A DNA stretch of 64,000 nucleotides from Marinicella sp. (GTDB taxonomy: Bacteria > Pseudomonadota > Gammaproteobacteria > Xanthomonadales > Marinicellaceae): assembly GCA_965230295.1 (NCBI GenBank), contig OZ246001.1, positions 2,912,001-2,976,000 of the forward strand. Reading direction: 5' to 3'. Positions 5,301 through 54,750 of this stretch are shown here, piece after piece; position 1 is the first letter of the stretch, and each line of letters opens with the position of its first letter. Below the pieces are notes generated by a model, which saw only the letters and a program-made list of their open reading frames with translations, was not told the DNA's origin and ran no database searches. The position numbers and the translations under genes were made by a program.

Positions 5301-6458
5301 TCGGTGGCCGTGTTGTCTGGTGATTCCGATGTGGATACGGGAGATACCTTGAGTGTCACGTCATGTTCCGCACCGAGCAATGGTACGGTGGTGCAAAACG
5401 GCAACAACTGTGATTTCACGCCCGGCCTGAATTTCAATGGCAGCGGAGGCTTCACTTATGCCATCAGCGACGGCAATGGTGGCAGCGACAGTGCCACGGT
5501 TTCAGTGACTGTGAACGCTGTGAATGACGATCCTGTGGCAGTCAACGACAATGCCAATACCAATGAAGACACCTTGGTATCGGTGGCTGTGCTGGCTGGT
5601 GACAGCGACCCGGATTCAGGCGATACCTTGAGTGTGACTTCATGTTCTGGTTCCAGCAACGGTACAGTGGTGCTCAATGGTAATAATTGTGACTACACAC
5701 CCAGCCTGAACTTCAACGGCACCGGTGGTTTCAGTTATGCCATCAGTGACGGCAATGGTGGCACCGACAGTGCCACGGTGACAGTATCGGTGGCAGCGGT
5801 TAACGATGATCCACTGGCGGTTAATGACAATGCCAATGCCAATGAAGATGGCGCTGTCTCAGTGGCGGTTTTGACTGGTGACAGTGATCCGGATAGTGGT
5901 GATACTTTGAGTGTAACTGCTTGTTCAGGCGCCAGTGATGGTTCAGTGGTACTCAACGGTAATAATTGTGATTTTACGCCGAGTTCGGATTTCAATGGCC
6001 AGGCCACATTTGATTACAGCATCAGCGATGGTAATGGTGGTTCAGACACCGCTTCGGTGACTGTTGATGTGGCTGCTGTAAATGATGAACCGAGCATGTC
6101 GGTGAATGATCAGGTATATGTCAGCTTGGCAGACATTGGCAGCCCGCCAGCACAAAACCTGGCTTGTCAATTTGACTTCGGTCCTGCCGACGAAGATGCC
6201 AGTCAGGCTGTTGCTGACATGATTGTCAGCATCACCAATGACCCTGACGGTATTTTGAGTTCAATCGATGTGGATAACAGCGGTGCTCTCAATTATACAT
6301 TTACCGGCAGTGCAGGGGTGGCAGAAGTGACTGTCTCGCTGCAAGATGATGGTGGCACCAGCAATGGTGGTGATGACACATCGGTGGCCTATACGTTCTT
6401 GGTCAATGTGCAGGATTACGTGTTCAGAAGTGACTTTGAAGCGCAAGTCTGTCCATAA
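2340..6458 (+). CDS. Large secreted protein with an N-terminal beta-rich domain and cadherin-like/Ig (tandem-95/Big_9-type) repeats; C-terminal DYVFRSDFE motif
   Basis: 1372 aa with an N-terminal hydrophobic segment. Contains a 'PADPHGAAGPNH...FDPKVLYD...RWGDYT' domain and repeats of the form 'NDDPVAVND...VL.GDSD.D.GD.L...F.YAISDGNGG'. Confidence 0.8.
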   Translation: MKIKVLILTSLIVFGVYELAPMIKPSKQTTESATLVAKPEWQELEPDEVINPLVPVVSPDTKGIVVDGITLQPQVRYNNLNPELAGQLSSEFTPTPKKRTGGYRYQKANPDEITQNHAKLDEGLPVTRSLVSSIDAGGQATNGVNTGFLFIPADPHGAAGPNHVVNVFNTSIEFYQTDGTANGSQSLQSFFAPLSPVNFTFDPKVLYDQYEQRFVVVTLERQDTAAGDPTNSSRVLVAVSDDANPNGTWFMHAINTNVNIGGTPSWFDYPGLAIDEEVIYLTGNQFTYGVSNSFQGVRLWAIQKTGFYSGGAATVVGSLDPFAGVSPNLPNTTQPAHTYGNAPAGLGTYLVSYSRINNGTSEFWQLIRLDNPLGVPSFTHQFINVGDIEPNAINGPPFPLAPQSGTALTLATNDPRALDAVWRDGQIFATATIESQSELGETSASWWVFDGVGGAAAFNDTGIIDGEDIAAGTFTFFPSIAVNADGGVGVGFSASAPSIFPSSYFAVRSPGDAAGTMRPSQLIRSGTDFYHRTFGGPSNRWGDYTSVAVDPNDECFWVYNKHAVNRSSGAASENGMYGTAFGEFCNQDPTAGNDSINVDEGATSTALVGGFTTVLNNDSDPDAADSIGAILVSGPADASSFNLNVNGTFSYTHNGDEAPTDSFTYNACDDGTPVKCDLATVNISVNPIDDDPTAVDDTATVDENTSNNTINVLTNDTDVDGGPLQVTGVTQPTNGTTSFTASNVSYTPDTDYCNDGVTTDDFDYTINGGSSATVEVTVTCQANQDPVANNDAVNTDEDVLVSVNVLANDNDPDAGDTLSVTSCSAPSNGTVVQNGNNCDFTPSLNFNGAGGFSYAISDGNGGTDTATVTVTVDPVNDDPVAVNDNANTNEDTLVSVAVLTGDSDVDTGDTLSVTSCSAPSNGTVVLNGNNCDFTPSLNFNGSGGFSYAISDGNGGTDTATVTVTVDAVNDDPVAVNDNATTDEDTLVSVAVLSGDSDVDTGDTLSVTSCSAPSNGTVVQNGNNCDFTPGLNFNGSGGFTYAISDGNGGSDSATVSVTVNAVNDDPVAVNDNANTNEDTLVSVAVLAGDSDPDSGDTLSVTSCSGSSNGTVVLNGNNCDYTPSLNFNGTGGFSYAISDGNGGTDSATVTVSVAAVNDDPLAVNDNANANEDGAVSVAVLTGDSDPDSGDTLSVTACSGASDGSVVLNGNNCDFTPSSDFNGQATFDYSISDGNGGSDTASVTVDVAAVNDEPSMSVNDQVYVSLADIGSPPAQNLACQFDFGPADEDASQAVADMIVSITNDPDGILSSIDVDNSGALNYTFTGSAGVAEVTVSLQDDGGTSNGGDDTSVAYTFLVNVQDYVFRSDFEAQVCP
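4686..6081 (+). repeat. Five tandem 279-bp (93-aa) intragenic Ig/cadherin-like repeats
   Basis: The 93-aa unit has 2 Cys and occurs five times. The copies are similar in protein sequence but carry many synonymous differences. Confidence 0.85.
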
Positions 6459-6475
6459 CCAGTATCAACAGAACC

Positions 6476-6503
6476 AAAAAAACCGGGCCATGCCCGGTTT
6501 TTT
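6476..6503. terminator. Bidirectional intrinsic terminator between convergent genes
   Basis: aaaaaaaccggg-ccatg-cccggttttttt. Confidence 0.8.
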
Positions 6504-6524
6504 TGTGCTTGATTGATGACTGGA

Positions 6525-10423: not shown

Positions 10424-10430
10424 GGTTTGT

Positions 10431-12393: not shown

Positions 12394-15300
12394 TCAGTTC
12401 AAAAATGACTCCAATTGTCTGGTGGTGGAACCGATGGTTCCAGGTAAATCACATTCAAACGTATCCTTGAATACGAACTGGTAAATCAAATCGCTGTCTT
12501 CAGCAACATTGTTTAACAGGTTAACATCAGTGGTACCTGCTGGCATATCAACTGAACTTTGTACATCAATAAAATCAAACAGCGAACCAGTGACCGTTGA
12601 GTCAAACAAATAGACTAATTGAGAACCAACTGGCAAGTTAACCAACTCATTGACCACATCTCCAGTGCCTGCGTTATCGTCACAAGAAGCCCCTCCAGTT
12701 TCCATGCATATCCAATCAGGTGTACTGATGTTTGGACTTAAAGTTGCATTAATCAAAGCACCGTTGATGTCGATGTTACCTGAGTTATTGATGGTTAATT
12801 CATACAACAACTGTTCATTTTGATCCACACCTTTAACACAGTTGGTGAAGAATATGGTTAAATCAGGACGGTAAGCAACGGTTGCAGTGGCAGGCCCTGA
12901 TACATTATTCGCTGTGTCAGTTTGTGTGGCTGTTGCCGTTTCACCATCTACGGGTTCTGGGCTTAAGTCACAAGTCCAATTTCCACTGCCATCAACCAAA
13001 GCTGAACAACTGGCACCGGAAGTGGTGCTGACATTAACAGTGGCGCCAATTTCACCTGTACCAGAGACGGTTAAGCCATTACTCGGGTCGTTGATGGTTG
13101 GCGGATTGGGAACCGTATCATCAAATGTGAAGCTGGCAGGCGTGGTGTTGGTGTTGCCAGCAACGTCTTGTATGGTGGCAACCTCATCCCCATCAACACC
13201 ATTCTGTCCAGCAGTGGCGTTACAAATCACTACATTGCCAGATTCAAGTCCACAACTGTAGCCAGGTATGGTCAAAGTGGCATCCGTTTCAACACCTGTA
13301 CAAGTGGCTGTTACGGGTGTGCCATTTCCGGCAGGATCAGGTGTGACAGTACAAACTGGTGCAGCTGGTGGCGTGGTATCTATGCCACCAACTTCTGTGG
13401 TTGGAGGCGAGGTGTTGCCCGCTGGATCTGTTTGGTCAGCCGTGATGTCTTCGCCATCTACTGGAGGACCAACCAAGGTGCACGACCAGGTGCCATCAGG
13501 TTGAACCAATGCCATACAGGTGGATCCTGATGGGGTGGTGACAGTTACGGTTGCTCCAGGTTCACCTGTCCCGGTCACAGGTGCGCCATTGGTTGGAACA
13601 TTGATGACTGGAGCCAGAGGCGGTAATGTATCAACTTCGATAGTTACAGTACTGGCCGGTGATGTATTGCCCACCTCATCTGTGGCTGTGGCAGTCAACT
13701 GATTGGACCCATCTTGTAAGGCTGGGCTGATTTGACATGACCAATCTCCATTGACATCGGCTTGTACTGTACAGCTTTCACCCAAAGGTCCGGTCACATC
13801 CACTGTAGAAAATGGCTCAGCAGTACCAACTACCACTGGATCATTGATGTTAGTGATGGCCCCATCCAGAGGGGCAGTGATGACTGGTGCAGCCGGTGCT
13901 TGTGCATCTACAGTGACCTCAGTAGGCAAGGATGAGTTGCCGTTGTCATCGGTGACAAACACACTGAGCACATCGTTGTGTGCAGGTGCTGGGATCACTG
14001 GTGAACAAGAGAAGTTACCTGCTGCATCAGCTGTGGTGGTACACAGGACATTGCCCTGATTATCCAACACCGTGATGTCGCCATTGGGGATGGTGGTACC
14101 CGTAACAGGATCACCATCGGTTGGGTTCACTTGAGGTGCAGGAGGTGCTGTGACATTCGGATCAAACACCGTGGTGGTTACCGGCGGTGATGCCAACAAG
14201 CCAGATTGAGTGGCCGTTGCACTGATCACATTGCCAGTGGCCGGTACTGGTGATGGTGAGTCACACACCCAGTTACCTGAAGCATCGACCGTTACAGGTG
14301 CGTTGCTACAAGTGATGCCAGCCAAATCAATGGTTGAATCAGGTACCGCAGAACCGGTGATTTCAGTGGCACCATCGGCCACAGGATCAATGGTTGGGCT
14401 GACTGATTGGGTCGCTGAATCGGCCACTGTGGTGCTGGTTGGGCCAGACTCGTTACCCGCGGCATCGGTGGCCGTTGCCGTGATCAGGGTGCCCGGAACC
14501 AAAGGTGCAGAGGTGGTCACATCACAAGACCACACCCCGTTCACATCAGCAAACACAGGGGCGTTGTCACACACGATGCCACTCAAAGTGATCAGAGCAC
14601 CAGGTTCTGCCAAACCAGTGACTGGGTTGGTGTTTTCATCAACCGGATCAATGGTCGGTGCGGTTGGTGCGGTGGTATCCAACACCAATTCACCGGATGT
14701 GGCATCTGGAGGAGAGGTGTTGCCGGCCGCATCAGTGGCTGTGACTGTGACATCATTGACACCGTTCAGATCCAGGTTCAAAGTACCTGAGTCTGGAGTG
14801 GCAGAAGCCAGATCCAACGACCAGTTGCCTGAACCGTCGGCAGTGGTGGTGTAAGTCGCACCACCAACCACGATGGTCACGGTGCTATCAGCTTCGGCTG
14901 TACCGTTAAGCACTGGAGTCGGGTTGTTGGTGGTTTGTGAAACAACCGTTGGCGCAGCCGGTGCTTGTGCATCTACAGTGACCTCAGTAGGCAAGGATGA
15001 GTTGCCGTTGTCATCGGTGACAAACACACTGAGCACATCGTTGTGTGCAGGTGCTGGGATCACTGGTGAACAAGAGAAGTTACCTGCTGCATCAGCTGTG
15101 GTGGTACACAGGACATTGCCCTGATTATCCAACACCGTGATGTCGCCATTGGGGATGGTGGTACCCGTAACAGGATCACCATCGGTTGGGTTCACTTGAG
15201 GTGCAGGAGGTGCTGTGACATTCGGATCAAACACCGTGGTGGTTACCGGCGGTGATGCCAACAAGCCAGATTGAGTGGCCGTTGCACTGATCACATTGCC

Positions 15301-18300
15301 AGTGGCCGGTACTGGTGATGGTGAGTCACACACCCAGTTACCTGAAGCATCGGCCGTTACAGGTGCGTTGCTACAAGTGATGCCAGCCAAATCAATGGTT
15401 GAATCAGGTACCGCAGAACCGGTGATTTCAGTGGCACCATCGGCCACAGGATCAATGGTTGGGCTGACTGATTGGGTCGCTGAATCGGCCACTGTGGTGC
15501 TGGTTGGGCCAGACTCGTTACCCGCGGCATCGGTGGCCGTTGCCGTGATCAGGGTGCCCGGAACCAAAGGTGCAGAGGTGGTCACATCACAAGACCACAC
15601 CCCGTTCACATCAGCAAACACAGGGGCGTTGTCACACACGATGCCACTCAAAGTGATCAGAGCACCAGGTTCTGCCAAACCAGTGACTGGGTTGGTGTTT
15701 TCATCAACCGGATCAATGGTCGGTGCGGTTGGTGCGGTGGTATCCAACACCAATTCACCGGATGTGGCATCTGGAGGAGAGGTGTTGCCGGCCGCATCAG
15801 TGGCTGTGACTGTGACATCATTGACACCGTTCAGATCCAGGTTCAAAGTACCTGAGTCTGGAGTGGCAGAAGCCAGATCCAACGACCAGTTGCCTGAACC
15901 GTCGGCAGTGGTGGTGTAAGTCGCACCACCAACCACGATGGTCACGGTGCTATCAGCTTCGGCTGTACCGTTAAGCACTGGAGTCGGGTTGTTGGTGGTT
16001 TGTGAAACAACCGTTGGCGCAGCCGGTGCTTGTGCATCTACAGTGACCTCAGTAGGCAAGGATGAGTTGCCGTTGTCATCGGTGACAAACACACTGAGCA
16101 CATCGTTGTGTGCAGGTGCTGGGATCACTGGTGAACAAGAGAAGTTACCTGCTGCATCAGCTGTGGTGGCACACAGGACATTGCCCTGATTATCCAACAC
16201 CGTGATGTCGCCATTGGGGATGGTGGTACCCGTAACAGGATCACCATCGGTTGGGTTCACTTGAGGTGCAGGAGGTGCTGTGACATTCGGATCAAACACC
16301 GTGGTGGTTACCGGCGGTGATGCCAACAAGCCAGATTGAGTGGCCGTTGCACTGATCACATTGCCAGTGGCCGGTACTGGTGATGGTGAGTCACACACCC
16401 AGTTACCTGAAGCATCGGCCGTTACAGGTGCGTTGCTACAAGTGATGCCAGCCAAATCAATGGTTGAATCAGGTACCGCAGAACCGGTGATTTCAGTGGC
16501 ACCATCGGCCACAGGATCAATGGTTGGGCTGACTGATTGGGTCGCTGAATCGGCCACTGTGGTGCTGGTTGGGCCAGACTCGTTACCCGCGGCATCGGTG
16601 GCCGTTGCCGTGATCAGGGTGCCCGGAACCAAAGGTGCAGAGGTGGTCACATCACAAGACCACACCCCGTTCACATCAGCAAACACAGGGGCGTTGTCAC
16701 ACACGATGCCACTCAAAGTGATCAGAGCACCAGGTTCTGCCAAACCAGTGACTGGGTTGGTGTTTTCATCAACCGGATCAATGGTCGGTGCGGTTGGTGC
16801 GGTGGTATCCAACACCAATTCACCGGATGTGGCATCTGGAGGAGAGGTGTTGCCGGCCGCATCAGTGGCTGTGACTGTGACATCATTGACACCGTTCAGA
16901 TCCAGGTTCAAAGTACCTGAGTCTGGAGTGGCAGAAGCCAGATCCAACGACCAGTTGCCTGAACCGTCGGCAGTGGTGGTGTAAGTCGCACCACCAACCA
17001 CGATGGTCACGGTGCTATCAGCTTCGGCTGTACCGTTAAGCACTGGAGTCGGGTTGTTGGTGGTTTGTGAAACAACCGTTGGTGCAGCCGGTGCGCTCAA
17101 ATCAATGCCACCTGCAACTGTGGTTGGAGGAGACGTATTGCCTGCTGCATCTTCTTGGGTTGCAGTGATGTCTTCACCGTCCACAGGTGTTGGAGACAAG
17201 GTACAAGACCAAGTGCCATCCAGTTGAACTGTTGCTGTACAAGTGGCGCCCGATGGTGTGGTTACCGTAACGGTGGCACCTGGTTCGCCAGTACCGGTTA
17301 CCGGTGCACCTGTAGTAGGTGCATTGATCACCGGAGCTGGAGGTGCATCATTATCCAAAGTGAAGTTGGCAGGCGTGGTTGCTGTGTTACCAGCCGCATC
17401 AGTTGCGGTGGCCGTTTCATCACCGTCAACACCAGCTGTGCCGACAGTACCGGTACAAGACCAGTTACCAGAACCATTGTCGGTACAGGCATAGCCTGGA
17501 ATGGTTAATGTAGCACCGGCTTCAACGCCAGTACAGTTGGCTGTAACGGCTGTGCCGTTGTTGGCAGGATCTGGAGTTACGGTACAGGTTCCGATGGTGG
17601 GCGGGGTGTTATCTAAAGTAAATGTAGCAGGAGTGGTGGCAGTATTGCCAGCAGCATCTGTGGCCGTGGCGGTTTCATCACCGTCAACACCAGCCGTACC
17701 CACGGTACCGGTACAAGACCAGTTGCCTGAGCCGTTATCGGTACAGGCATAGCCTGGGATGGTTAATGTAGAACCGGCTTCAACACCCGTACAGTTGGCT
17801 GTAACGGCTGTGCCGTTGTTGGCAGGATCTGGAGTAACCGTACAAGTGCCAATCGAAGGAGGCGTATTATCCAGTGTGAAATTAGCTGGAGTGGTGGCTG
17901 TGTTGCCAGCGGCATCGGTAGCTGTGGCGGTTTCATCACCGTCAACACCAGCTGTGCCGACAGTACCGGTACAAGACCAGTTACCAGAACCATTGTCGGT
18001 ACAGGCATAGCCTGGAATGGTTAATGTAGCACCGGCTTCAACGCCAGTACAGTTGGCTGTAACGGCTGTGCCGTTGTTGGCAGGATCTGGAGTTACGGTA
18101 CAGGTTCCGATGGTGGGCGGGGTGTTATCTAAAGTAAATGTAGCAGGAGTGGTGGCAGTATTGCCAGCAGTATCTGTGGCCGTGGCCGTTTCATCACCGT
18201 CAACACCAGCTGTGCCCACGGTACCGGTACAAGACCAGTTGCCTGAGCCATTGTCGGTACAGGCATAGCCTGGAATGGTTAATGTAGCACCGGCTTCAAC

Positions 18301-21300
18301 GCCAGTACAGTTGGCTGTAACGGCTGTGCCGTTGTTGGCAGGATCTGGAGTAACCGTACAAGTTCCGATCGCTGGTGGCGTATTATCCAGTGTGAAATTA
18401 GCAGGAGTGGTGGCAGTATTGCCAGCAGTATCTGTGGCCGTGGCCGTTTCATCACCGTCAACACCAGCCGTACCCACGGTACCGGTACAAGACCAGTTGC
18501 CTGAGCCGTTATCGGTACAGGCATAGCCTGGAATGGTTAAGGTAGCACCGGCTTCCACACCGGTACAGTTGGCTGTAACAGCGGTGCCGTTGTTGGCAGG
18601 ATCTGGAGTTACGGTACAGGTTCCGATGGTGGGTGGGGTGTTGTCTAAGGTAAAGGTAGCAGGCGTTGTTGCTGTGTTGCCCGCGGCATCAGTTGCGGTG
18701 GCCGTTTCATCACCGTCAACACCAGCCGTACCCACGGTACCGGTACAAGACCAGTTGCCTGAGCCATTGTCGGTACAGGCATAGCCTGGGATGGTTAAGG
18801 TAGCACCACCTTCCACACCCGTACAGTTGGCCGTAACGGCAGTGCCATTATTGGCTGGGTCTGGAGTAACCGTACACGTACCAATCGAAGGCGGCGTGTT
18901 GTCCAATGTGAAATTAGCTGGAGTCGTTGCTGTGTTACCAGCCGCATCAGTTGCGGTGGCCGTTTCATCGCCATCAACACCAGCCGTACCCACGGTACCG
19001 GTACAAGACCAGTTGCCTGAGCCATTGTCGGTACAGGCATAGCCTGGAATGGTTAAGGTAGCACCCGCTTCAACACCCGTACAGTTGGCTGTAACAGCGG
19101 TGCCATTGTTGGCTGGATCTGGAGTTACGGTACACGTTCCAATCGCAGGAGGCGTATTATCCAGTGTGAAATTAGCAGGCGTTGTTGCTGTGTTGCCCGC
19201 GGCATCAGTTGCGGTGGCCGTTTCATCACCGTCAACACCAGCTGTGCCCACGGTACCGGTACAAGACCAGTTGCCTGAGCCGTTATCGGTACAGGCATAG
19301 CCTGGAATGGTTAAGGTAGCACCGGCTTCAACGCCAGTACAGTTGGCTGTAACGGCTGTGCCGTTGTTGGCAGGATCTGGAGTAACCGTACAAGTTCCGA
19401 TCGCAGGAGGCGTATTATCCAGTGTGAAATTAGCAGGCGTTGTTGCTGTGTTGCCCGCGGCATCAGTTGCGGTGGCCGTTTCATCGCCATCAACACCAGC
19501 CGTACCCACGGTACCGGTACAAGACCAGTTGCCTGAGCCATTGTCGGTACAGGCATAGCCTGGAATGGTTAAGGTAGCACCACCTTCCACACCCGTACAG
19601 TTGGCCGTAACGGCAGTGCCATTATTGGCTGGGTCTGGAGTAACCGTACACGTACCAATCGAAGGCGGCGTGTTGTCCAATGTGAAATTAGCTGGAGTCG
19701 TTGCTGTGTTACCAGCCGCATCAGTTGCGGTGGCCGTTTCATCGCCATCAACACCAGCCGTACCCACGGTACCGGTACAAGACCAGTTGCCTGAGCCATT
19801 GTCGGTACAGGCATAGCCTGGAATGGTTAAGGTAGCACCCGCTTCAACACCCGTACAGTTGGCTGTAACAGCGGTGCCATTGTTGGCTGGATCTGGAGTT
19901 ACGGTACAGGTTCCGATGGTGGGAGGTGTGATGTCATTAAGGGTTACCGTTGCCGTGTCTTGAAAGGTGAAATCAGTGGTGGGCAATTGGGTTGAGTTTG
20001 AGTTGATGGTGACAATATTGTCGATATCACCTGTGGGTGCTGCCGCATCAATTTGGGCTTGAAATCTCACCACAACTTGTTCACCTGGGGCAATTTCGCC
20101 ACCGTTGCTGTTATCAGCATTCAAACCGACTCGGAACACCACTTGATCGTTGCCGCTGTCATATTCAGCTGCATCATCACCAACTGTGTCAGTCAAACTA
20201 CCGGTTGGGCCGGCATCGGCGCTGACGATTTCCAATGAGTTTGGCACATAGGTCATGTTGGCAGGAATGGGGTCTGTAACAACGGTGTTGATGGCATCGT
20301 CGGAACCGTCATTGGTGAAACTGATGTCATAGGTGATCACATCGTTTCTGCCAATATCGCCGCCATTGTCATCGGTGGCGGTCTTTGTCAAAGATGAACT
20401 GAAGTCCGGTACATTGAGGTCGGTAACAAATGTTAAATAGTTCGGGTAATAGGAATCACCATTGGTCTGAAACTCAATGTTGGCTTCTATCTCTGAGTTG
20501 CCCCAAATGGCCAATGGAATGTCATGGAAATCTACGTCCATACCCAGTTGATTGACGTAGTTGGGCGTTTTGTTGGTGATTTGAGCGCCACTTTTGGTGA
20601 TCGAGCTGTTCCAAAAGTTATCAACTGGATTGATGCCAGTGGTGAACAAGTCAGTGCCTTCAAAACGGAATCGATCCCCTGAAATGTTTTGATCACCTTC
20701 CCAAACCAAGGCCCCGACAGATGCTGTGACGTCTCCTGATGCCGGTGTGAGCAATCCACCAATGGTCACTGCGACAGGCGTGGTACCCGTGACCCGTGCG
20801 GCCCCATCGTACAAAGCCAAGCGCCGGAATGGTAGTGTACTGTCTTCATAAACAACCACAATAGACCAGCCGCCATAAAATCCCAGCCCATCGGCACCGT
20901 TGTTGGCAGATAAACCACCAACGAAGTAAACACCTGAACCATTGGTTTGAACCATGGTGGTGATGTCTGCCCAGACTTGATAAGGTCTGTTGCCAGCAGA
21001 GCCTTGAGTTGAAAAATCATCTAAGTTGCCCGCGCCTACATTGATGCTGCTGTAACTACCGGCAAGTGGAGGCTTGATATTGATGGTACGTCGAGCGTTG
21101 GAACCACCACCACTGTCAGCAAATCGTCCACCCCAGTATAAACCGGCGTACAAGACATTACTGCCGGCTGGCAGCGTGAGGGTGGCGCTGGAGGAATTGG
21201 TAAAACCGCCAGGCACGTCTTCGTTGACATAGCGGGTTTGGATGTTGTTGTTGCCGTTAACGGTACCGCTTTGTCTATCGGCACAATCGGTTGTCGTTGC

Positions 21301-21456
21301 TTCATCACAAGTGATCAATACATTACCGATCAATTCAATGCCCCCATTGGTGTCAACACTGAATCGACTGGTGAAGTTACGGTCAATTTGGGCTTGAACC
21401 GAAGAAAAAACAAGTAAAAGGACAGCAAAAACGCTGTATTTGGATTTAACGCTCAT
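12394..21456 (-). CDS. Giant repetitive Ig-like surface protein/adhesin (~3020 aa) with DUF11-type domains; C-terminal QFVFKDTFE motif
   Basis: Probable ATG start at 21456 (the ORF track starts at GTG 21468), followed by a signal peptide. Contains a DUF11-like 'TKT...GDI...ITYDISFTNDG...VVTDPIP' domain, many 'TATDAAGNTS' bacterial Ig repeats and a C-terminal DUF11-like domain. Confidence 0.85.
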   Translation of the reverse strand: MSVKSKYSVFAVLLLVFSSVQAQIDRNFTSRFSVDTNGGIELIGNVLITCDEATTTDCADRQSGTVNGNNNIQTRYVNEDVPGGFTNSSSATLTLPAGSNVLYAGLYWGGRFADSGGGSNARRTINIKPPLAGSYSSINVGAGNLDDFSTQGSAGNRPYQVWADITTMVQTNGSGVYFVGGLSANNGADGLGFYGGWSIVVVYEDSTLPFRRLALYDGAARVTGTTPVAVTIGGLLTPASGDVTASVGALVWEGDQNISGDRFRFEGTDLFTTGINPVDNFWNSSITKSGAQITNKTPNYVNQLGMDVDFHDIPLAIWGNSEIEANIEFQTNGDSYYPNYLTFVTDLNVPDFSSSLTKTATDDNGGDIGRNDVITYDISFTNDGSDDAINTVVTDPIPANMTYVPNSLEIVSADAGPTGSLTDTVGDDAAEYDSGNDQVVFRVGLNADNSNGGEIAPGEQVVVRFQAQIDAAAPTGDIDNIVTINSNSTQLPTTDFTFQDTATVTLNDITPPTIGTCTVTPDPANNGTAVTANCTGVEAGATLTIPGYACTDNGSGNWSCTGTVGTAGVDGDETATATDAAGNTATTPANFTLDNTPPSIGTCTVTPDPANNGTAVTANCTGVEGGATLTIPGYACTDNGSGNWSCTGTVGTAGVDGDETATATDAAGNTATTPANFTLDNTPPAIGTCTVTPDPANNGTAVTANCTGVEAGATLTIPGYACTDNGSGNWSCTGTVGTAGVDGDETATATDAAGNTATTPANFTLDNTPPAIGTCTVTPDPANNGTAVTANCTGVEAGATLTIPGYACTDNGSGNWSCTGTVGTAGVDGDETATATDAAGNTATTPANFTLDNTPPSIGTCTVTPDPANNGTAVTANCTGVEGGATLTIPGYACTDNGSGNWSCTGTVGTAGVDGDETATATDAAGNTATTPATFTLDNTPPTIGTCTVTPDPANNGTAVTANCTGVEAGATLTIPGYACTDNGSGNWSCTGTVGTAGVDGDETATATDTAGNTATTPANFTLDNTPPAIGTCTVTPDPANNGTAVTANCTGVEAGATLTIPGYACTDNGSGNWSCTGTVGTAGVDGDETATATDTAGNTATTPATFTLDNTPPTIGTCTVTPDPANNGTAVTANCTGVEAGATLTIPGYACTDNGSGNWSCTGTVGTAGVDGDETATATDAAGNTATTPANFTLDNTPPSIGTCTVTPDPANNGTAVTANCTGVEAGSTLTIPGYACTDNGSGNWSCTGTVGTAGVDGDETATATDAAGNTATTPATFTLDNTPPTIGTCTVTPDPANNGTAVTANCTGVEAGATLTIPGYACTDNGSGNWSCTGTVGTAGVDGDETATATDAAGNTATTPANFTLDNDAPPAPVINAPTTGAPVTGTGEPGATVTVTTPSGATCTATVQLDGTWSCTLSPTPVDGEDITATQEDAAGNTSPPTTVAGGIDLSAPAAPTVVSQTTNNPTPVLNGTAEADSTVTIVVGGATYTTTADGSGNWSLDLASATPDSGTLNLDLNGVNDVTVTATDAAGNTSPPDATSGELVLDTTAPTAPTIDPVDENTNPVTGLAEPGALITLSGIVCDNAPVFADVNGVWSCDVTTSAPLVPGTLITATATDAAGNESGPTSTTVADSATQSVSPTIDPVADGATEITGSAVPDSTIDLAGITCSNAPVTADASGNWVCDSPSPVPATGNVISATATQSGLLASPPVTTTVFDPNVTAPPAPQVNPTDGDPVTGTTIPNGDITVLDNQGNVLCATTADAAGNFSCSPVIPAPAHNDVLSVFVTDDNGNSSLPTEVTVDAQAPAAPTVVSQTTNNPTPVLNGTAEADSTVTIVVGGATYTTTADGSGNWSLDLASATPDSGTLNLDLNGVNDVTVTATDAAGNTSPPDATSGELVLDTTAPTAPTIDPVDENTNPVTGLAEPGALITLSGIVCDNAPVFADVNGVWSCDVTTSAPLVPGTLITATATDAAGNESGPTSTTVADSATQSVSPTIDPVADGATEITGSAVPDSTIDLAGITCSNAPVTADASGNWVCDSPSPVPATGNVISATATQSGLLASPPVTTTVFDPNVTAPPAPQVNPTDGDPVTGTTIPNGDITVLDNQGNVLCTTTADAAGNFSCSPVIPAPAHNDVLSVFVTDDNGNSSLPTEVTVDAQAPAAPTVVSQTTNNPTPVLNGTAEADSTVTIVVGGATYTTTADGSGNWSLDLASATPDSGTLNLDLNGVNDVTVTATDAAGNTSPPDATSGELVLDTTAPTAPTIDPVDENTNPVTGLAEPGALITLSGIVCDNAPVFADVNGVWSCDVTTSAPLVPGTLITATATDAAGNESGPTSTTVADSATQSVSPTIDPVADGATEITGSAVPDSTIDLAGITCSNAPVTVDASGNWVCDSPSPVPATGNVISATATQSGLLASPPVTTTVFDPNVTAPPAPQVNPTDGDPVTGTTIPNGDITVLDNQGNVLCTTTADAAGNFSCSPVIPAPAHNDVLSVFVTDDNGNSSLPTEVTVDAQAPAAPVITAPLDGAITNINDPVVVGTAEPFSTVDVTGPLGESCTVQADVNGDWSCQISPALQDGSNQLTATATDEVGNTSPASTVTIEVDTLPPLAPVINVPTNGAPVTGTGEPGATVTVTTPSGSTCMALVQPDGTWSCTLVGPPVDGEDITADQTDPAGNTSPPTTEVGGIDTTPPAAPVCTVTPDPAGNGTPVTATCTGVETDATLTIPGYSCGLESGNVVICNATAGQNGVDGDEVATIQDVAGNTNTTPASFTFDDTVPNPPTINDPSNGLTVSGTGEIGATVNVSTTSGASCSALVDGSGNWTCDLSPEPVDGETATATQTDTANNVSGPATATVAYRPDLTIFFTNCVKGVDQNEQLLYELTINNSGNIDINGALINATLSPNISTPDWICMETGGASCDDNAGTGDVVNELVNLPVGSQLVYLFDSTVTGSLFDFIDVQSSVDMPAGTTDVNLLNNVAEDSDLIYQFVFKDTFECDLPGTIGSTTRQLESFLN
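13900..17094 (-). repeat. Three tandem near-identical 1065-bp (355-aa) repeats
   Basis: Antisense ORFs recur at a 1065-bp period (14210/15275/16340) with almost identical sequence. Only a few substitutions are visible (V/A, T/A). Confidence 0.92.
17356..19935 (-). repeat. Ten tandem 258-bp (86-aa) Cys-containing Ig-like repeats
   Basis: The unit 'TPPxIGTCTVTPDPANNG...GVDGDETATATDAAGNTATTPAxFTLDN' occurs 10 times. The ORF track shows a 258-bp periodicity. Confidence 0.92.
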
Positions 21457-21671
21457 AGACACACACACTATCTGTTGATTAATGTGTGATTTATATCACA
21501 GAAAATCTGAAAATAAAGGCTGTAAGTGGGAAAACTGTGAACTAATTAACAGTTTGTGACATTTGGTCAATATATATGGCACAAAGTTATAGCTAAGATG
21601 ACGTATCTTCAACTAATTTGACAAATCATGTCACTCAATAATAGAACAGTAAAATCAGTCAATTAAGTTGG

Positions 21672-22511: not shown

Positions 22512-25500
22512 TCAGTTGTTTTCTAAACCGTCTTTAAAGATCAAGTCAGTTTCTATCATTGAAAAAGCATCCAGGTTATATTCGAAAACAGTTCCATCTG
22601 GATTGCCTACGATCACAGCACAGAATGCTGAAGACGTGTTGTCGGGTAGCAATAACCTGCTGCTGTTTGTTTGCCATTGTGGTGTTGGCGATGCGGGTAT
22701 AACAAACTCTTCCATGTGATTTGGACCAGTGCCATTGCCATTACAATCGGCATCCTCTAACAAGGCACAAATCAAAAACAACTCTAAATTGTTTGCTTGA
22801 GATGGAACGCCCAGTCCTGATACAGATAAAGTGTGGCTGCCGGGCGATTCAAAATTAATACACTGTTCTATGCCAAGTTGAGGTGAGTTGAGGCTTTTCA
22901 TGTATACGGATCCAGACAAGGAAGAATCATCAAAGTCAACAGTACTGTCAGCAACTATGATATCAGGATTTTGTCCAATAATATTGAATGTGTTGAGTGA
23001 AATAGGACTGTCACCACAATCATCCAAATATGCGTTTGTCATCAAATTGTCTGGTTCTACTCTGAACTGGCGCTTTAAGTTACCACCCGGGGTGCCATTC
23101 AGATCACCATCGATCGCATTGCCGGCTGCATCTGTGATGTCATCACAAACCATCAACACATATTGACCAGCCGTTAAAGGTGCATCTAAGGTTAATGTGG
23201 CATCCGGGTTTGTCGGGGTACCTCCTGTGGTGAACGTATTGATGTTAATGAAACTGTCATCACCCATTACACTGTCACAAGATAAGGTTTGCAAATCTTG
23301 ATCTAATCCAGTATCGATGAGGGCGTAATTCAGGTTGTCATCGACCCCAATGAGCCCAGGGTTGTCATCCTGAAATGAAACCACGATTGCAGAAATTTGA
23401 TCATTATTTTGGCTACAAGACAAAATTTCTGTGATAGAAGGGTTGGCATCGATCAAGGTCACAACCGGAATGATTTGATCAACTGGTGTCAACTCCGTAT
23501 CGGCATCATTGTCGATGGCGTTAAAGGCAGACAAGGTAGCGGTGTTTGACAATTCGGTCACGCCTGGATCCAGGCTCTCATCCACCTTAACCGCAAAGAA
23601 GACGGTGTCTTTACCAGAAAGACCAGGTAAACCACCGATGTCATAGGTACAGGTTGAACCTGCTGAATTGTCCGGCACGCAAGCCCATCCAGCGGTACTG
23701 CCGGGGGGATAGAATGTGGTGTTGTCAGGAACCGTTTCTGTGATGAGGGCATTCAAAGCATCCCGATCCCCTTCATTGAAATTAATGAGGGTGTAGTTGA
23801 TGACTTTGCCCAGTGCTGCGGTAACGCCTCCATCGGTTTTAACAATCCTCAAATCCACTTCAGCATCAATGGGCGTGGTGTCCTGAGCATTCGCTGCAGT
23901 GGCATTGCTGGCATCCATCACCACCGTGTTGGTCAATTGAGAAAAAATACCGGGTACCGGGGTGTTGAGCGTCAATGCAAAATCTGCTGAACCGTTTGTG
24001 CCACCGCCCACAGTGCCTAAGTCAAAGGTACAAGTACTGCCAGCTGTGTTGTCAGGTAAACATACCCATCCTGCCGTACTGGCAGCCGCATCGAATACAG
24101 TCTCTGTCAAGACCGTTTCACTCAATGTGGCGCTGTCAGCATCCTGATCACCTGTGTTGCCATAATCAATCTGATAAACCACTGTGGAACCGGGTGTTAG
24201 GCTGATGTCGCCATCGGTTTTACTGACACTCAAAACAGCTGCCGATGTAACTGGTGTTGAATCTGATGCCATGTCATCGCTGGCATTGTCAGCACTCAGC
24301 GTAACGCTGTTACTTATCTGTGTGGTACCGGCAGGTACTGAGCTGATGATCTGAACATCGAAAGTGGTGGAAAAATTTGTTCCTGCCAGATTGCTTGGCA
24401 AAGTCGTACACGTAGATCCCGCGCTATTGTCGGGCAAGCAAGTCCAATCGAAGGGTGCGGTTGGTACATAGTTGGTATTGGTTGGTACCACTTCCGTTAA
24501 AACGGCATTACTGGCCACTTGATTACCTGTGTTGGTGGCGACGATGTCGTAGGTAATTGTGTCACCAGGAACGGCATTGATTAAATCATTGTCTGTTTTG
24601 GTGACTGATAAGACTGCAGCTGAGGTGATGGGGGTGGTGTCAGCTGCCATGACATCATTGATGGCGTTGTTGGCACCCAATGTCACGCTGTTGCTGACAG
24701 CTGTTACGCCGACGCTGACATAATCATCAACCTGGACCGCGAAGGTGGCTGAATCTGAACCACCAGGTCCGAGTTCAGCGGGTGTCAAAGTACAAGTGGA
24801 TCCTGCCATATTATCAGGCAAACAAGCCCATCCAACCGTGCTGCTGCCAGGTAAAAAAGTGGTCTCAGCAGGTACGGTTTCGGTTAAGGTAATTCCAGAT
24901 GTGGCTCCTGCACCTGCTGCATTGGCATAATTCAATGTGTAAGTGATGGTGCCACCAGGTGCTGTATTGGTCACATCACCGTCAGATTTGGTGATGGACA
25001 ATTCAGGTCCGGGCAAAACTTCAATGCCGGCATATCCATTGGTTTGGACCAGACTGGCATTTTCAATGTCGACGTTGGTGCTGGACTCATTAATCAGGTC
25101 GATGGTATACATGCTCCATTTGTTGGCATTGGGACCAGTCGAAGGGCGTCCGAAGAAAAAATATTGACTCGATTGGTAATTCAGGGCCGATAAGCCACTG
25201 GCAGTGGTGATTGGATCGCCAAAATCAATTTCAATGTTGGTGTTGACTTCAGGCTCCCCGCCATCAGAAATATCTCCTTCAATTTTTGCCAAGCTGCGAG
25301 CGCCTCCACCCGGGCTATAAAGCACCCAAAGCGCATCACTGGATTGGTCCCATTCGAGACCAAAAATATTGCTGGGAGTGAAATCGCCCCAGAAATCATC
25401 CAGAATGAGTGAAAAGTGTTCGTCAGTATTGGCAGTTGAAATGACATACAATTCGCCGTCACCGATGAAAAATGCGCGTTGTCCGGTCGAGTCACCAGTC

Positions 25501-33152: not shown

Positions 33153-33215
33153 TGAGTTCATCTGTCTGAACTAACCGGCAGAAGATGAGTCCAAAGCTAA
33201 AAACAGGACCAAGCT

Positions 33216-47169: not shown

Positions 47170-48609
47170 GTGATGTTATTAAGAACAAAAAGGATCCAAT
47201 GGGTGTTGTTGGTTTTGATTATAGGCCAGTCTTTCAATGCTTGGGCACAACTCAAAGCTTTTCCGGAAGCGACAGGTTTTGCTGCTTATGTAACTGGAGG
47301 ACGAGGTGGGGATGTCCACATTGTCACCAACCTCAATGCTTCAGGTGTGGGCAGTTTGCAATGGGCTGTTTCTCAGCCAGGCCCACGCATTGTGGTGTTT
47401 GAAGTTTCCGGGTTGATTGTTGGTGACTTACACATTCCACATGGTGATTTAACCCTGGCTGGACAAACAGCTCCCGGGGCAGGGATCACTCTGGTGGGGC
47501 ACATGTACACCACTTATAACTCGGACACGGGTAACATCATCATCAGGCACATGCGGATCAGGCCACCAGATCCTGATAGTGAATGGCCTGCTAATCAGCA
47601 TGATGCCATCCAATTTTCCACCGCCAACAACATCATGCTGGATCACATTGATGCTTCACATGGTGCGGATGAGACCATAGATTTTTGGGGAGGGGCAGCT
47701 CACATCACCATCCAGTATTCGCATTTATCATTTCCAATTTATGACACTGCCAATGGTTGGACCCACAACAAGGGTGTGATCAACCACCGTCCTTGTTTGG
47801 ATGGCGGAAGCTGTCAGCCCGGCGATCGAACAGGTGGTTACATCTCCATCATTAAAAATGTGTTTACGCATTCTCGAAACCGGACACCAGCCTTGTCTGT
47901 GGGCCCAGCCGAAGTGATCAACAACATCACTTATAACGGTCGTGAAGGCTTTGTTCACCATAATATTTCGGAAGGACAGTTCAACATCATGGGTAATCAG
48001 TACATAGAAGGACCCAGTGCCAGTTTGGCACCATTTTGGTTTGATCCAGAAAACCCTTCACCACCAGTACCCACTGAATATTGGCTGCAAGACAATTTGG
48101 TGGAAGACCCGGGCAGTTACAACGGCACAGTGCAAAACCCCTGGGATGATGTGGCATTCAGCAATGCCTATTCATTTGCTTGCTGTGGCATCAATTCATC
48201 CCAATTCAATCAATCAGCGGCTTTTGATTTCACTGTTGATCCAGGTTATGCCAGCAGCCAAATGATGGATCAAAATCAGTTGGAGACCAATTTGTTGTCA
48301 AGTATTGGCGCCTACCCGCATGACATTGTGGCCAGACAATCCATTCAAGAGTTGGAACAACGCAATGGCAGTTGGCGCAATTACCGACCCGCCAATCTAA
48401 TGGATGGTCTGACGCCAACGACACCACCCTTGGATTCAGATGATGATGGCATGCCCAATGACTGGGAAAACCTACATGGCTTAGACCCTCAAAATGGCAA
48501 TGACCACACCACCATCATGCCATCTGGTTACACAGCCATTGAACAATACATCAATGAACTGGCTTCCTGGTTGATTGGCGATGTTATTTTTGCCGATGAT
48601 TTTGAGTGA
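47170..48609 (+). CDS. Pectate lyase-like (PL1-type) secreted beta-helix protein; C-terminal DVIFADDFE motif
   Basis: Motifs 'AFPEA.GF...TGGRGG.V..VTNLN.SG.GSL', 'AGQTAPG.GI', 'RNRTP' and 'DSDDDGMPNDWE'. Confidence 0.82.
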   Translation: MMLLRTKRIQWVLLVLIIGQSFNAWAQLKAFPEATGFAAYVTGGRGGDVHIVTNLNASGVGSLQWAVSQPGPRIVVFEVSGLIVGDLHIPHGDLTLAGQTAPGAGITLVGHMYTTYNSDTGNIIIRHMRIRPPDPDSEWPANQHDAIQFSTANNIMLDHIDASHGADETIDFWGGAAHITIQYSHLSFPIYDTANGWTHNKGVINHRPCLDGGSCQPGDRTGGYISIIKNVFTHSRNRTPALSVGPAEVINNITYNGREGFVHHNISEGQFNIMGNQYIEGPSASLAPFWFDPENPSPPVPTEYWLQDNLVEDPGSYNGTVQNPWDDVAFSNAYSFACCGINSSQFNQSAAFDFTVDPGYASSQMMDQNQLETNLLSSIGAYPHDIVARQSIQELEQRNGSWRNYRPANLMDGLTPTTPPLDSDDDGMPNDWENLHGLDPQNGNDHTTIMPSGYTAIEQYINELASWLIGDVIFADDFE

Positions 48610-49686: not shown

Positions 49687-50319
49687 TTGACTGAAACCCA
49701 CAACATGCAACTAAACCAAACTGTTATCATCATCGCTGTCACTTGTCTGGTCTCTTATTTCGCCTGGCAGAACCGAACCTTGATGTCACGATTGATCTTC
49801 TGGTCTCCTGCCATCAAACAAGGACAGGTTGAACGTTTCATCACCCATGGCTTTATTCATGCTGATGGCATGCATTTGCTGTTCAACATGTTCACCTTTT
49901 ATTTCTTTGGTTCCATCATCGAAAGCTTTTACCGCCAATATTTGGGAGGTGCCGGTTTTGTGTTGTTTTACCTCTGTGCCATAGTGGTGGCCATGTTGCC
50001 TTCTTACATCAAGCACAAGGATGATCGCAATTACGCCAGCTTGGGAGCGTCAGGTGCCGTTTCAGCGGTGTTATTTGCCTACATTTTATTTGCGCCCTGG
50101 GAGTTTTTATACATCTTCGGAGCCATCCCCGTTCCGGCCATTGTGTTCGTGGTGGGGTATGTTTGGTACAGCATCAAAGCGCATCATGAGAACAATGACA
50201 ACATCAACCACAGCGCCCATTTATACGGTGGCTTATTTGGCGTGGTTGTCACTGCAGTGGTCGAACCCAGGATTGTCAGTCACTTTTTCAATCAATTATT
50301 CAATCCCGGTTGGTTCTGA
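49687..50319 (+). CDS. Rhomboid family intramembrane serine protease
   Basis: 'HGFIHAD.MHLLFNM', catalytic 'GASG' and 'HSAHLYG'. Confidence 0.92.
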   Translation: MTETHNMQLNQTVIIIAVTCLVSYFAWQNRTLMSRLIFWSPAIKQGQVERFITHGFIHADGMHLLFNMFTFYFFGSIIESFYRQYLGGAGFVLFYLCAIVVAMLPSYIKHKDDRNYASLGASGAVSAVLFAYILFAPWEFLYIFGAIPVPAIVFVVGYVWYSIKAHHENNDNINHSAHLYGGLFGVVVTAVVEPRIVSHFFNQLFNPGWF

Positions 50320-53084: not shown

Positions 53085-53181
53085 AGCTGTTGTACAGATT
53101 CAGTTGGCTGGCATTCCATGAATGTAACCCCATAAGAACATGACTTTGTTAGAATGGTTGTTTTGGCACAAATTATTGAAG

Positions 53182-54750
53182 ATGAAACACCTTAAATTGT
53201 TTTGGACTGTATTGCTGTTGCCAGCCTGTTTGCATGCAGGTGGGTTGTCGACCTTAACCCTACCGACCCGGCCTGATTGTGAAGGCCTTTATTTTATAGA
53301 CATTCAAGCCAGTTACCCCGGGGTAGATTTTGCCAATTTGGACCGCTTGTACATACCCCAAGGACATTACAGTTTCATCAGGTTGGGTAATTTACCTGAC
53401 AAAACTGCCGTCAATCCATTGGTCATCACCAACACCGGTGGCCAGGTAAGGGTTGGGGGTTGTGCTCACCATTACAATTTTGTCGTCTCAGGAGGCAGTC
53501 ATTGGAAGTTGACAGGTGAATACCAACTGACTGAAGCGACTGGAGATGCCCAATTTGTTGGTCACGCCAACGGACAATATGCACACTCTTATGATCAATA
53601 TGGCATTTTGATTGATGCTGAATATGGGCCTGGTAATATTGGTTTAAGTGTTGCAGGTGGGTCAACAGATTTTGCAGTGAGCTTCCTTGAAGTGAGGAAG
53701 TTGGGTTTTGCAGGCATGATGTTTAAGACCGACAACGATGGCAATGCACACATGGATAATGTGAAAATTCATGATAACTATATTCATGACACCATCAGTG
53801 AAGGGGTTTATTTGGGCAGCACCCAAAGCCAACCACAACACAAATTTACCAACCTTGAATTTTATAACAACCGCTTGATCAGGACGGGCACAGAAATTGG
53901 CCAATTCGGCAACCTTGGTGACAACAGTCGCATTCACCACAATGTGTTTTTATTGGGTGCTCTGGAGTGGAAAAACCCATTCCAAAATTTTCAGGACAGC
54001 AGCATCCAATTAGGCCATCGGGAAGGCAGCATGTCATTTGACCACAACATCGTGATTGGCGGGGCCAGTAATAACTTAATCTTCTTCAATCCTGATGTGG
54101 CCGGCGATCAACACACGGTGAATGACTTGGTCAACATCCATGACAATTATTTCGGGTTTTCACGAAACATTGGTGTATATATCCATTCATCCAGTGACGG
54201 TGTCAAACAAATTGAATTCAACAACAATTATTTTACTGAAGTGGTGTTCAGTTACGATGAACTCAATCCGGGAAGCACCAATCACCAACGCATCATCAGG
54301 TCATTCAATGCCGACAATCCTATTGGTTTAAATAACAACATTTATGAACCTCAAGCCGGGCAAAGTTTTTATGCGGGTTTTTCTAACATCACAGACAATA
54401 ATAATCAGCCTTCAAGCATTGATGACATTCCGTTTTACCAATTGGGGTGGCCTGGTTCTGGCGATTATTTCACCATGGAAATTTGGACGGCCTTAGATAC
54501 ACATGGTGAAACGGTCACCTACCAAGCAGGCGACTTGGTGGTTCATCTAGGCAGTATTTATGAAGCACAAAGAACCATAGACTACCAAGTCGATAATCAA
54601 GTCTCACCGGATAACGCACTGGTTACAGATTGGCTACTGAAACCACCCATGGCTGATGACGTCAGGCAGTTGTTCAACTCTCCATTTGCACACATTGGGT
54701 TGTTGGACCAAGTCTTGAGTGATGTGATTTTTGCTGATGGGTTTGAATGA
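53182..54750 (+). CDS. Secreted right-handed parallel beta-helix protein with a possible CBM5/12-like module; C-terminal DVIFADGFE motif
   Basis: Signal peptide from ATG 53182 (the ORF track starts at 53140). Repeated 'IHDNY/FYNN/IHHN' beta-helix turns and a 'YQAGDLVVHLGSIYEA' CBM-like segment. Confidence 0.7.
   Translation: MKHLKLFWTVLLLPACLHAGGLSTLTLPTRPDCEGLYFIDIQASYPGVDFANLDRLYIPQGHYSFIRLGNLPDKTAVNPLVITNTGGQVRVGGCAHHYNFVVSGGSHWKLTGEYQLTEATGDAQFVGHANGQYAHSYDQYGILIDAEYGPGNIGLSVAGGSTDFAVSFLEVRKLGFAGMMFKTDNDGNAHMDNVKIHDNYIHDTISEGVYLGSTQSQPQHKFTNLEFYNNRLIRTGTEIGQFGNLGDNSRIHHNVFLLGALEWKNPFQNFQDSSIQLGHREGSMSFDHNIVIGGASNNLIFFNPDVAGDQHTVNDLVNIHDNYFGFSRNIGVYIHSSSDGVKQIEFNNNYFTEVVFSYDELNPGSTNHQRIIRSFNADNPIGLNNNIYEPQAGQSFYAGFSNITDNNNQPSSIDDIPFYQLGWPGSGDYFTMEIWTALDTHGETVTYQAGDLVVHLGSIYEAQRTIDYQVDNQVSPDNALVTDWLLKPPMADDVRQLFNSPFAHIGLLDQVLSDVIFADGFE

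Follow-up and report, generated by a model that had tools for sequence, protein, structure and literature searches.

Why do secreted proteins with no domain in common end in almost the same nine residues? The question is raised by a 64,000-nt stretch of the genome of Marinicella sp. (GenBank assembly GCA_965230295.1, contig OZ246001.1, positions 2,912,001–2,976,000 of the forward strand), hereafter the window, where five predicted secreted proteins bear a short tail rich in acidic and hydrophobic residues at or near the C-terminal end. A first-pass annotation of the window had described these five tails as one motif and as a candidate sorting or surface-anchoring tag. Translation of the five open reading frames (ORFs) reproduced the quoted tails and their coordinates (Table 1); the domain content of the products is unrelated in Pfam and NCBIfam, and neither database gave a match within the tails. 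Three of the tails fit the consensus of the whole genome and are canonical, whereas the other two are degenerate and extended, and thus tag-like rather than canonical. Our results indicate that the tail is very probably a sorting tag of some kind, read in trans, and that it quite possibly marks proteins for export through the Gsp-type type II secretion system (T2SS).

The genome containing the window is a single contig of 4,008,074 bp with 44% G+C. Of the 47 matches produced by a six-frame scan with a simple regular expression, 27 are directly followed by a stop codon, and the distance to a stop codon is at most 5 residues in 38. Using a crude, home-made set of 3241 non-overlapping ORFs that covers 90% of the genome, a strict expression matched 40 times in the last 30 residues versus once in the other ca. 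1.1 million residues. A loose expression, of the type D-[LVI]-I-F-x-[DNS]-[GDS]-F-[EDQ] and sought in the last 16 residues, identified 84 of these ORFs as carriers, when about four would be expected by chance as computed from its 140 internal matches; one of the 84, a TetR-like protein, is clearly a false match. Counts per position among the 84 carriers were D76, L46/V25/I8, I78, F76, x, D54/N13/S11, G42/D21/S9, F78 and E44/D33/Q7, with no conservation upstream of the tag. The tag is the exact end of 52 carriers (62%), and the other 32 have 1–7 further, mostly polar residues; in about nine carriers or variants, the residue directly behind the tag is a Cys. Clustering of the 100 residues preceding the tag by similarity gave 64 groups, of which 56 are singletons, and the tag is therefore not the last strand of one shared domain, an alternative contemplated in the first-pass annotation. 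These data confirm that the tag is real, occurs more often than by chance and is far commoner than the five cases of the window.

The five window tails can be placed against this consensus. Both degenerate tails have Y or F at the L/V/I position, QFVFKDTFE has in addition Q in place of D, and the loose expression misses both; the tail of the cadherin-like adhesin, which agrees with seven of the nine positions of the logo, was missed by all the expressions used. The DUF11-repeat protein is a carrier by the loose expression, with L instead of F at the second-last position of the tag, as in 3 of the 84 carriers. The remaining secreted proteins of the window had been described as untagged, and indeed its DUF885, beta-lactamase-type (serine) hydrolase, deacetylase and M4 peptidase ORFs are absent from the list of carriers.

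Carriers are predominantly exported proteins. A deliberately simple, home-made heuristic for signal peptides was positive for 70 of the 84 carriers versus 1176 of the 3157 other ORFs (odds ratio 8.4, Fisher p = 1.5e-17), and inspection by eye showed leaders in 10 of the 14 misses, including a DUF1501 protein, whose leader is of the twin-arginine (Tat) type; a lipoprotein-type leader is present in one carrier. The T2SS takes folded periplasmic proteins, and the occurrence of both Sec and Tat leaders among the carriers fits a system accepting such cargo. Pfam was run on 47 carriers, chosen by taking alternate carriers in genome order and adding those of two hot spots. The families found comprise M12B, M28, M14 and S8 peptidases, DUF11, GEVED, LTD, CotH, MAM, Calx-beta, FG-GAP, LRR, DUF285, cadherin-like, CBM96 and choice-of-anchor I, with no family in 17 of the 47. 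In other phyla, such protein repertoires bear type IX secretion system (T9SS), PEP-CTERM or similar tags. The hot spots of tagged genes are situated at genome positions 3805764–3835053 and 1196590–1216122; the former contains FG-GAP paralogues whose last residues are FDCN or FDCI, together with DUF285, CotH plus LTD, and LRR proteins. The longest frame of a tagged LRR protein (genome 3834094–3835053, + strand) begins with NRLDY repeated six times in tandem; the true start and the signal peptide are likely to lie behind these repeats.

Homologues of two carriers show how the tag is placed. We compared 79 loci, from named genomes, related to the choice-of-anchor I protein. All seven Marinicella orthologues (72–78% identity) end in GVFRL[IV][DE]V[IVL]FxxxF[ED] followed by the stop codon, preserving the tag positions while the x positions vary, and the tag was found in none of the other 72 loci. 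Nine of these tagless products stop 3–11 residues past the domain, one from Desulfobulbus has a PEP-CTERM tail, three have dockerin-like tails and the remainder run on into RTX repeats or further domains. A similar picture emerged from 120 listed homologues of the right-handed beta-helix protein of the window: the closest (59–79% identity) keep the short tag, ca. 35 with 44–53% identity have a longer tail, [LIVF]-F-x-DGFESGD..W-S plus a few residues, and most of the more distant ones stop directly after the domain, with PEP-CTERM-like tails in two. The tag is thus an add-on, at a position where other taxa stop or place surface anchors. Several bearers of the long tail, in the form [LIVF]-F-x-DGFESGD(T/L)..W-S plus 2–8 residues, are named at NCBI as metagenome-assembled genomes of Acidobacteriota or Thermoanaerobaculia, and one protein of the window's genome (3860455–3861678, − strand) also has it; it is rare in the order, being present in 8 of 121 genomes. 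The long form and the short tag may be relatives, the former being spread more widely, across phyla.

An AlphaFold2 model of the choice-of-anchor I carrier, built from a 34-row alignment (mean predicted local distance difference test score, pLDDT, 86.5; predicted template modeling score 0.88), extends the last strand of the protein through residues 1–4 of the tag, and gives the final five residues a pLDDT below 50, so that the end of the tag is predicted to be exposed and free. The amphipathic beta-strand suggested in the first-pass annotation is not supported in this detail, the modeled strand covering the first four residues only and the rest being predicted as disordered; nor was support obtained for its suggestion of a donor strand that docks cargo onto a surface scaffold. 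Its broader proposal, that a short tag at the C-terminus sorts or anchors unrelated secreted proteins, is supported by the enrichment at C-terminal ends, the excess of leaders, the diversity of folds and the position shared with surface anchors.

The tag is restricted to one lineage, occurring throughout the Marinicellaceae and sparsely elsewhere in the GTDB order Xanthomonadales, which agrees with the resemblance to tails of Xanthomonadales-related bacteria mentioned in the first-pass annotation. Genomes were searched with a codon-degenerate DNA pattern for the tag and its stop codon, which detects 31 of the 84 carriers of the window's genome, so zero matches do not equal absence; the reversed pattern, used as a control, gave 0 matches in every genome. 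The pattern matched all 24 other Marinicellaceae genomes searched, 7–55 times each. Among 121 sampled genomes from the order, all with a completeness of 90% or more, 43 were positive: 14 of 14 Marinicellaceae, 7 of 7 in family f3, which by a guess we take to be the Wenzhouxiangellaceae, 2 of 2 in another family and some genomes of six further families, as against 0 of 15 and 0 of 14 in two others. Outside the order, only 2 of 397 genomes of the class had a match, a single one in each case and ending in TGG instead of a stop codon. The Marinicellaceae and Wenzhouxiangellaceae, both placed in GTDB Xanthomonadales, are described as marine bacteria that are proteolytic and non-motile, their shared core including a T2SS (PMC7691419); the available text of that article mentions no such motif, with 0 occurrences of "C-terminal" or "motif".

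The distribution of the tag follows that of one type of T2SS. Of the three secretins encoded in the window's genome, one is PilQ of the type IV pilus, and was rejected as machinery for the tag on this account; a second belongs to a complete Xps-like operon without a Pfam GspC, and the third to a gspC(PDZ)-D-E-F cluster, with a high-scoring gspG elsewhere in the genome. Two Omp85 proteins, of ordinary BamA and TamA size, were also set aside as tag machinery. Among the 121 genomes of the order, GspC (PF11356, T2SSC) was found in 85, including all the 43 tag-positive genomes, and the tag in none of the 36 GspC-negative ones. We additionally sampled 71 genomes from 28 genera of family f12, where both traits are patchy. 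Here the tag occurs in 14 genomes from six genera and GspC in 21 genomes from seven, with all 14 tag-positive genomes containing GspC, none of the 50 GspC-negative genomes containing the tag, and one genus dividing along the same line. GspG, a pseudopilin examined as a control, is present in 70 of the 71. A GspG match with E ≤ 2.3e-38 (at least 131.9 bits) occurs in the 21 GspC-positive genomes and in no others, the next best, from a GspC-negative genome, scoring 118.6 bits; 18 of the 21 also contain a lower-scoring GspG. Since GspG is near-universal in this family and yet the tag appears only with GspC, a T2SS alone is insufficient, and it is the canonical Gsp type that the tag accompanies. 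The two samples together comprise 178 distinct genomes, with GspC in all 53 tag-positive genomes and no tag in the 77 that lack GspC; the GspC-negative genomes that were checked retain another T2SS.

Linkage was also examined. No neighboring gene was shared around nine tagged genes from two high-GC genomes, in an analysis with a crude ORF caller that kept spurious opposite-strand frames; direct inspection of one of these nine loci nevertheless revealed adjacency to gspC. In one genome of a distant genus, two signal-peptide proteins ending in DVVFADGFD and DVIFANGFD are encoded divergently to gspC(PDZ)-gspD-gspE, and a tag match lies 2–4 kb from gspC in three of the four genomes of that genus.

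The explanation we favor is that the unrelated carriers would cross the inner membrane via Sec or Tat and fold in the periplasm, where the tail D-[LVI]-I-F-x-[DNS]-[GDS]-F-[EDQ]-COOH would mark them as cargo of the canonical Gsp-type T2SS, that is, the one having a GspC with a PDZ domain. The exposed acidic-hydrophobic peptide would be read in trans by a periplasmic part of the system, which would help to select the carriers for export to the cell surface or the medium, a destination that we infer in preference to retention. The PDZ domain of GspC, which selects a subset of the cargo in Vibrio cholerae (VesB) and Dickeya (PMC12369372), would be the first candidate reader, although that assignment, taken by itself, is rather doubtful. 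An alignment of 21 GspC sequences contains a conserved G-[LMV]-R-[VL] stretch in this domain, which could, speculatively, be a carboxylate-binding loop with its Arg meeting the acidic last residue. It seems unlikely that the fullest version of this explanation holds in all its parts, the tail being the first linear, transferable T2SS secretion signal, of nine residues and read directly by the GspC PDZ domain, possibly with the Arg of a G-L-R-V loop pairing with the acidic end, its use having been expanded by the Marinicellaceae to ca. 80 proteins per genome and the long form doing the same job in other phyla, such as the Acidobacteriota. Co-folding of residues 24–517 of the choice-of-anchor I carrier with residues 185–288 of GspC, spanning its PDZ domain (alignments of 34 and 21 rows, respectively), scored 0.00 in both runs, without controls, and gives no verdict either way. 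Apart from GspC, ten or more PDZ proteins are encoded in the genome, which gives about eleven candidate readers.

Several considerations weigh against an export tag of the T2SS. Both the participation of the T2SS and the reading of the tag by a PDZ domain rest on inference; the tag ends in E, D or Q, whereas canonical PDZ ligands end in a hydrophobic residue, and the 1–7 residues past the tag in 32 of the 84 carriers are a misfit with a reader that strictly requires the free carboxylate. No strict match was found in 48 of the 101 GspC-positive genomes, including 12 of 14, 11 of 14 and 11 of 14 in three families and all three of one genus, from which it follows that the Gsp system works without the tag, with the reservation that the low sensitivity of the DNA pattern does not equate zero matches to absence. 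Co-occurrence hence establishes a necessary condition only, related genomes are not independent data points, and a clade from which the Gsp system disappears would also lose the cargo, irrespective of the function of the tag. Furthermore, neither the gspCDEF locus (at 0.65 Mb) nor that of gspG (at 2.61 Mb) has a carrier next to it in the window's genome, the second, Xps-like T2SS is a possible export route, and the gene and signal-peptide calls come from crude, home-made heuristics.

The same observations must be weighed under other explanations. Carriers could exit through the T2SS by virtue of ordinary structural features, the tail then docking them non-covalently on a surface component (lipopolysaccharide, an outer-membrane protein or a repeat scaffold) and keeping hydrolases and adhesins bound to the cell. 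Co-occurrence with the Gsp-type T2SS would be equally expected, the many GspC-positive genomes without the tag imply that export needs no tag, many carriers are adhesin-like, and family f3, tentatively the Wenzhouxiangellaceae, is tagged in all seven genomes. Additionally, the authors of a study of Wenzhouxiangella, the sister genus, report that proteolytic activity was absent from the medium, and infer outer-membrane-anchored proteases (PMC7691419). However, no receptor or scaffold candidate was found, and nine residues of which the last five are predicted to be disordered make a small handle for stable anchoring, so we consider retention an unlikely though serious alternative; if true, the tail would be the first small Gram-negative C-terminal sorting signal without a membrane anchor. 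Removal or modification of the tail by a periplasmic or outer-membrane peptidase or transpeptidase, attaching the protein to a lipid or glycan in the manner of T9SS C-terminal domain (CTD) removal or of rhombosortase with glycerophosphoethanolamine, appears improbable. All known small C-terminal sorting signals are said to be cut by a dedicated enzyme (preprint 10.1101/2023.06.07.544157), the 1–7 residues tolerated behind the tag (19 in two cases) are what one would see at a cleavage site, and a rhomboid with a weak match to the rhombosortase model (43.9 bits; cut-off 84) is encoded 1 kb from one window carrier. Nevertheless, the tag has no membrane-spanning part and offers nothing for an intramembrane protease (rhomboid, exosortase or CPBP) to cut, nothing at all follows it in 52 of the 84 carriers, and no enzyme gene recurs beside the carriers at the loci inspected.

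A tail that controls stability rather than destination is still less probable. PDZ proteases read C-terminal peptides, and the tail could be a quality-control or degradation signal read by periplasmic PDZ proteases (DegP/DegQ or Prc/Ctp-like), as DegS reads the C-termini of outer-membrane proteins; the ten or more PDZ proteins encoded besides GspC would supply such readers. Restriction to GspC-positive genomes would then be unexplained, because HtrA and Prc proteases are near-universal, as would the occurrence of the tag at the position of surface anchors in other taxa, and it is difficult to see why ca. 80 abundant enzymes and adhesins outside the cell should bear a degron. The least probable explanation denies the tail any role in trans, regarding it as a structural cap in cis, or as the relic first strand of a lost C-terminal jelly-roll (MAM/LamG-like), spread by recombination among genes for secreted proteins. 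Residues 1–4 of the tag prolong the last strand of the domain in the AlphaFold2 model, and the long form F-x-DGFESGD...W-S of other phyla, found once in the window's genome, resembles the first strand of MAM/LamG-type domains. On the other hand, at least 56 unrelated sequences preceding the tag make a common structural role unlikely, the last five residues of the tag are predicted to be disordered, the tag positions are kept in seven of seven orthologues while the x positions vary, and the exclusive tie to exported proteins and GspC would remain unexplained.

The tail behaves as a small C-terminal sorting signal, but without two defining features of such signals, a transmembrane helix and a basic cluster. 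No membrane-spanning helix follows the tag, as the first-pass annotation had stated, and the last tag residue is E, D or Q, which leaves no basic cluster, so that tripartite sorting signals were rejected. The nearest comparison is the GlyGly-CTERM/rhombosortase system of Vibrio, Shewanella and Acinetobacter, where, likewise in Gammaproteobacteria, a short C-terminal tag is found on many unrelated Sec-exported hydrolases. GlyGly-CTERM cargo reaches the surface in a T2SS-dependent manner, its model cargo VesB needing the PDZ domain of GspC (EpsC) (PMC12369372), and a requirement of the T2SS has been described for GlyGly-CTERM and MYXO-CTERM tagged proteins alike (preprint 10.1101/2023.06.07.544157). 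In contrast, the GlyGly-CTERM signal is tripartite (Gly/Ser motif, transmembrane helix and basic cluster) and undergoes cleavage by an intramembrane rhomboid, whereas the Marinicella tag has neither helix nor basic tail; in VesB, moreover, the PDZ-dependent information resides in an immunoglobulin-fold domain and not in the tail. The PEP-CTERM/exosortase, MYXO-CTERM/myxosortase and LPXTG/sortase systems are similar in having many lineage-specific tags per genome, at the very end of unrelated exported proteins such as adhesins, peptidases, beta-helix and choice-of-anchor proteins, and homologues of two carriers have PEP-CTERM-type tails at the same place.

The CTD of the T9SS of Bacteroidota is also a C-terminal signal without a transmembrane helix, present on dozens of Sec-exported proteins per genome, with a repertoire of hydrolases and adhesins that resembles the one described here. 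It is, however, a folded domain of ca. 70–100 residues, as opposed to nine residues with a disordered end, and the host here is a gammaproteobacterium; additionally, neither Por_Secre_tail nor any other CTD model matched in NCBIfam or Pfam among four window carriers and six tails, and this candidate was rejected. The beta-signal of outer-membrane proteins and the ligands of PDZ domains are similarly short, Phe-rich hydrophobic motifs that terminate envelope proteins and can be read by strand addition. The beta-signal was discarded because the F of the tag is second-last (78 of 84 carriers), the last residue is acidic and the carriers are soluble multidomain proteins instead of beta-barrels; from a canonical PDZ ligand the tag differs in its last residue and in the residues that may follow it. 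A C-terminal signal of the type I secretion system was rejected in view of the N-terminal leaders. The carriers do share features with T2SS substrates in general, which are folded Sec or Tat cargo of which the C-terminal domain of GspC selects a subset, and here leaders of both types are present and a T2SS is encoded and co-distributed with the tag. No NCBIfam tail model matches the four window carriers, the six short tails or four long tails tested, Pfam finds nothing in the tails of the carriers, and no published description was found in a literature that excludes most subscription journals and supplements; this accords with the remark in the first-pass annotation that no characterized machinery was known for such tails.

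With respect to that annotation, the scale across the genome and the strict co-occurrence with a GspC-type T2SS are new. The choice of cargo by the T2SS is a long-standing open question, and the system is said to have no universal linear signal (PMC12369372), so a linear tail conserved among T2SS-linked cargo proteins would be a novelty. About 2.6% of the proteome bears one short, conserved C-terminal peptide, predicted to be exposed, in genomes with one type of T2SS only, which makes the question of cargo choice directly testable. The tag could also be used to predict, in a simple way, the extracellular proteins of the Marinicellaceae and their relatives, which degrade proteins and polymers in the sea, and possibly as a compact tag for display or secretion engineering.

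Table 1. Tagged proteins of the window and proteins with a second type of C-terminal tail in the same genome
Feature	Length (aa)	Coordinates	Strand	C-terminal tail
Cadherin-like / tandem-95-repeat adhesin	1372	window 2340..6458	+	degenerate, DYVFRSDFE (6414–6440), then AQVCP and stop
Giant repeat adhesin	3024	window 12394..21468	−	degenerate, QFVFKDTFE (12454–12480), then 19 residues, CDLPGTIGSTTRQLESFLN, and stop
DUF11-repeat surface protein	1166	window 22512..26012	−	DLIFKDGLE (22521–22547), then NN and stop
Pectate-lyase-like secreted protein	479	window 47170..48609	+	canonical, DVIFADDFE and stop (48580–48609 including stop)
Right-handed beta-helix secreted protein	536	window 53140..54750	+	canonical, DVIFADGFE and stop (54721–54750 including stop)
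(A/P)VPVP-tail protein		genome 2778439–2783760		(A/P)VPVP type
(A/P)VPVP-tail protein		genome 820214–821107		(A/P)VPVP type
(A/P)VPVP-tail protein		genome 3056–3868		(A/P)VPVP type
(A/P)VPVP-tail protein		genome 3946541–3948502		(A/P)VPVP type
(A/P)VPVP-tail protein		genome 2285626–2286402		(A/P)VPVP type
(A/P)VPVP-tail protein		genome 982792–983415		(A/P)VPVP type

Domain searches of the tagged proteins of the window identified Big_9, Cadherin_4/5 and tand_rpt_95 in the cadherin-like adhesin (Pfam and NCBIfam), four DUF11 copies in the surface protein (Pfam), and a weak match to Pectate_lyase_4 (Pfam) and a PelZ-like match of 77.6 bits, under the cut-off (NCBIfam), in the pectate-lyase-like protein; homologues of the beta-helix protein bear PF13229. 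The giant adhesin consists in part of ten near-identical units of ca. 107 residues and three near-identical blocks of ca. 355 residues, and its region has 51–55% G+C versus 44% in the genome; the + strand ORFs at 14210, 15275 and 16340 (214 aa each) are repeat artefacts within this gene. A paralogue of 3388 aa (genome 2689110–2699276) has the same tag plus extension, ending in FKGQFECVAPGTIGSSTELLESLLH, and both extensions follow the pattern FE-C-x-x-PGTIGS-x-x-x-LES-x-L.

A scan for C-terminal transmembrane helices with basic tails detected a second type of tail in about six proteins, formed by an (A/P)VPVP-like motif, a hydrophobic helix and basic residues, which we take to resemble the IPTL-CTERM and VPXXXP-CTERM sorting domains; the genome may thus run two different C-terminal sorting systems. 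The scan found no obvious GlyGly-CTERM proteins. One of the six ORFs has its start overlapped by a 110-residue ORF without a leader (genome 982463–982795) that ends in the canonical tag DLIFESGFE, and the pair may be a frameshifted or fused gene with two tail types in series. Within the window, the rhomboid protease mentioned above (49687–50319, +) lies downstream of its tagged neighbor, and a beta-barrel protein matching TIGR04219 ("OMP_w_GlyGly"; 201 bits, over the cut-off; 38202–38930, +) is encoded 9 kb upstream.

Two other regions deserve mention. After lptE-holA, the window contains genes for an MBOAT (DltB-like) acyltransferase, an unannotated partner ORF of 340 residues and an amidase with an LdtF/DpaA-like L,D-transpeptidase fold (30734–33902, +), and a second MBOAT pair adjoins the gspCDEF locus. 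Finally, the ORF at window positions 6525–7730 (− strand) joins the N-terminal part of a fatty-acid desaturase to the C-terminal part of an ISL3-type transposase, and is probably an insertion-sequence junction or an artefact of ORF calling.

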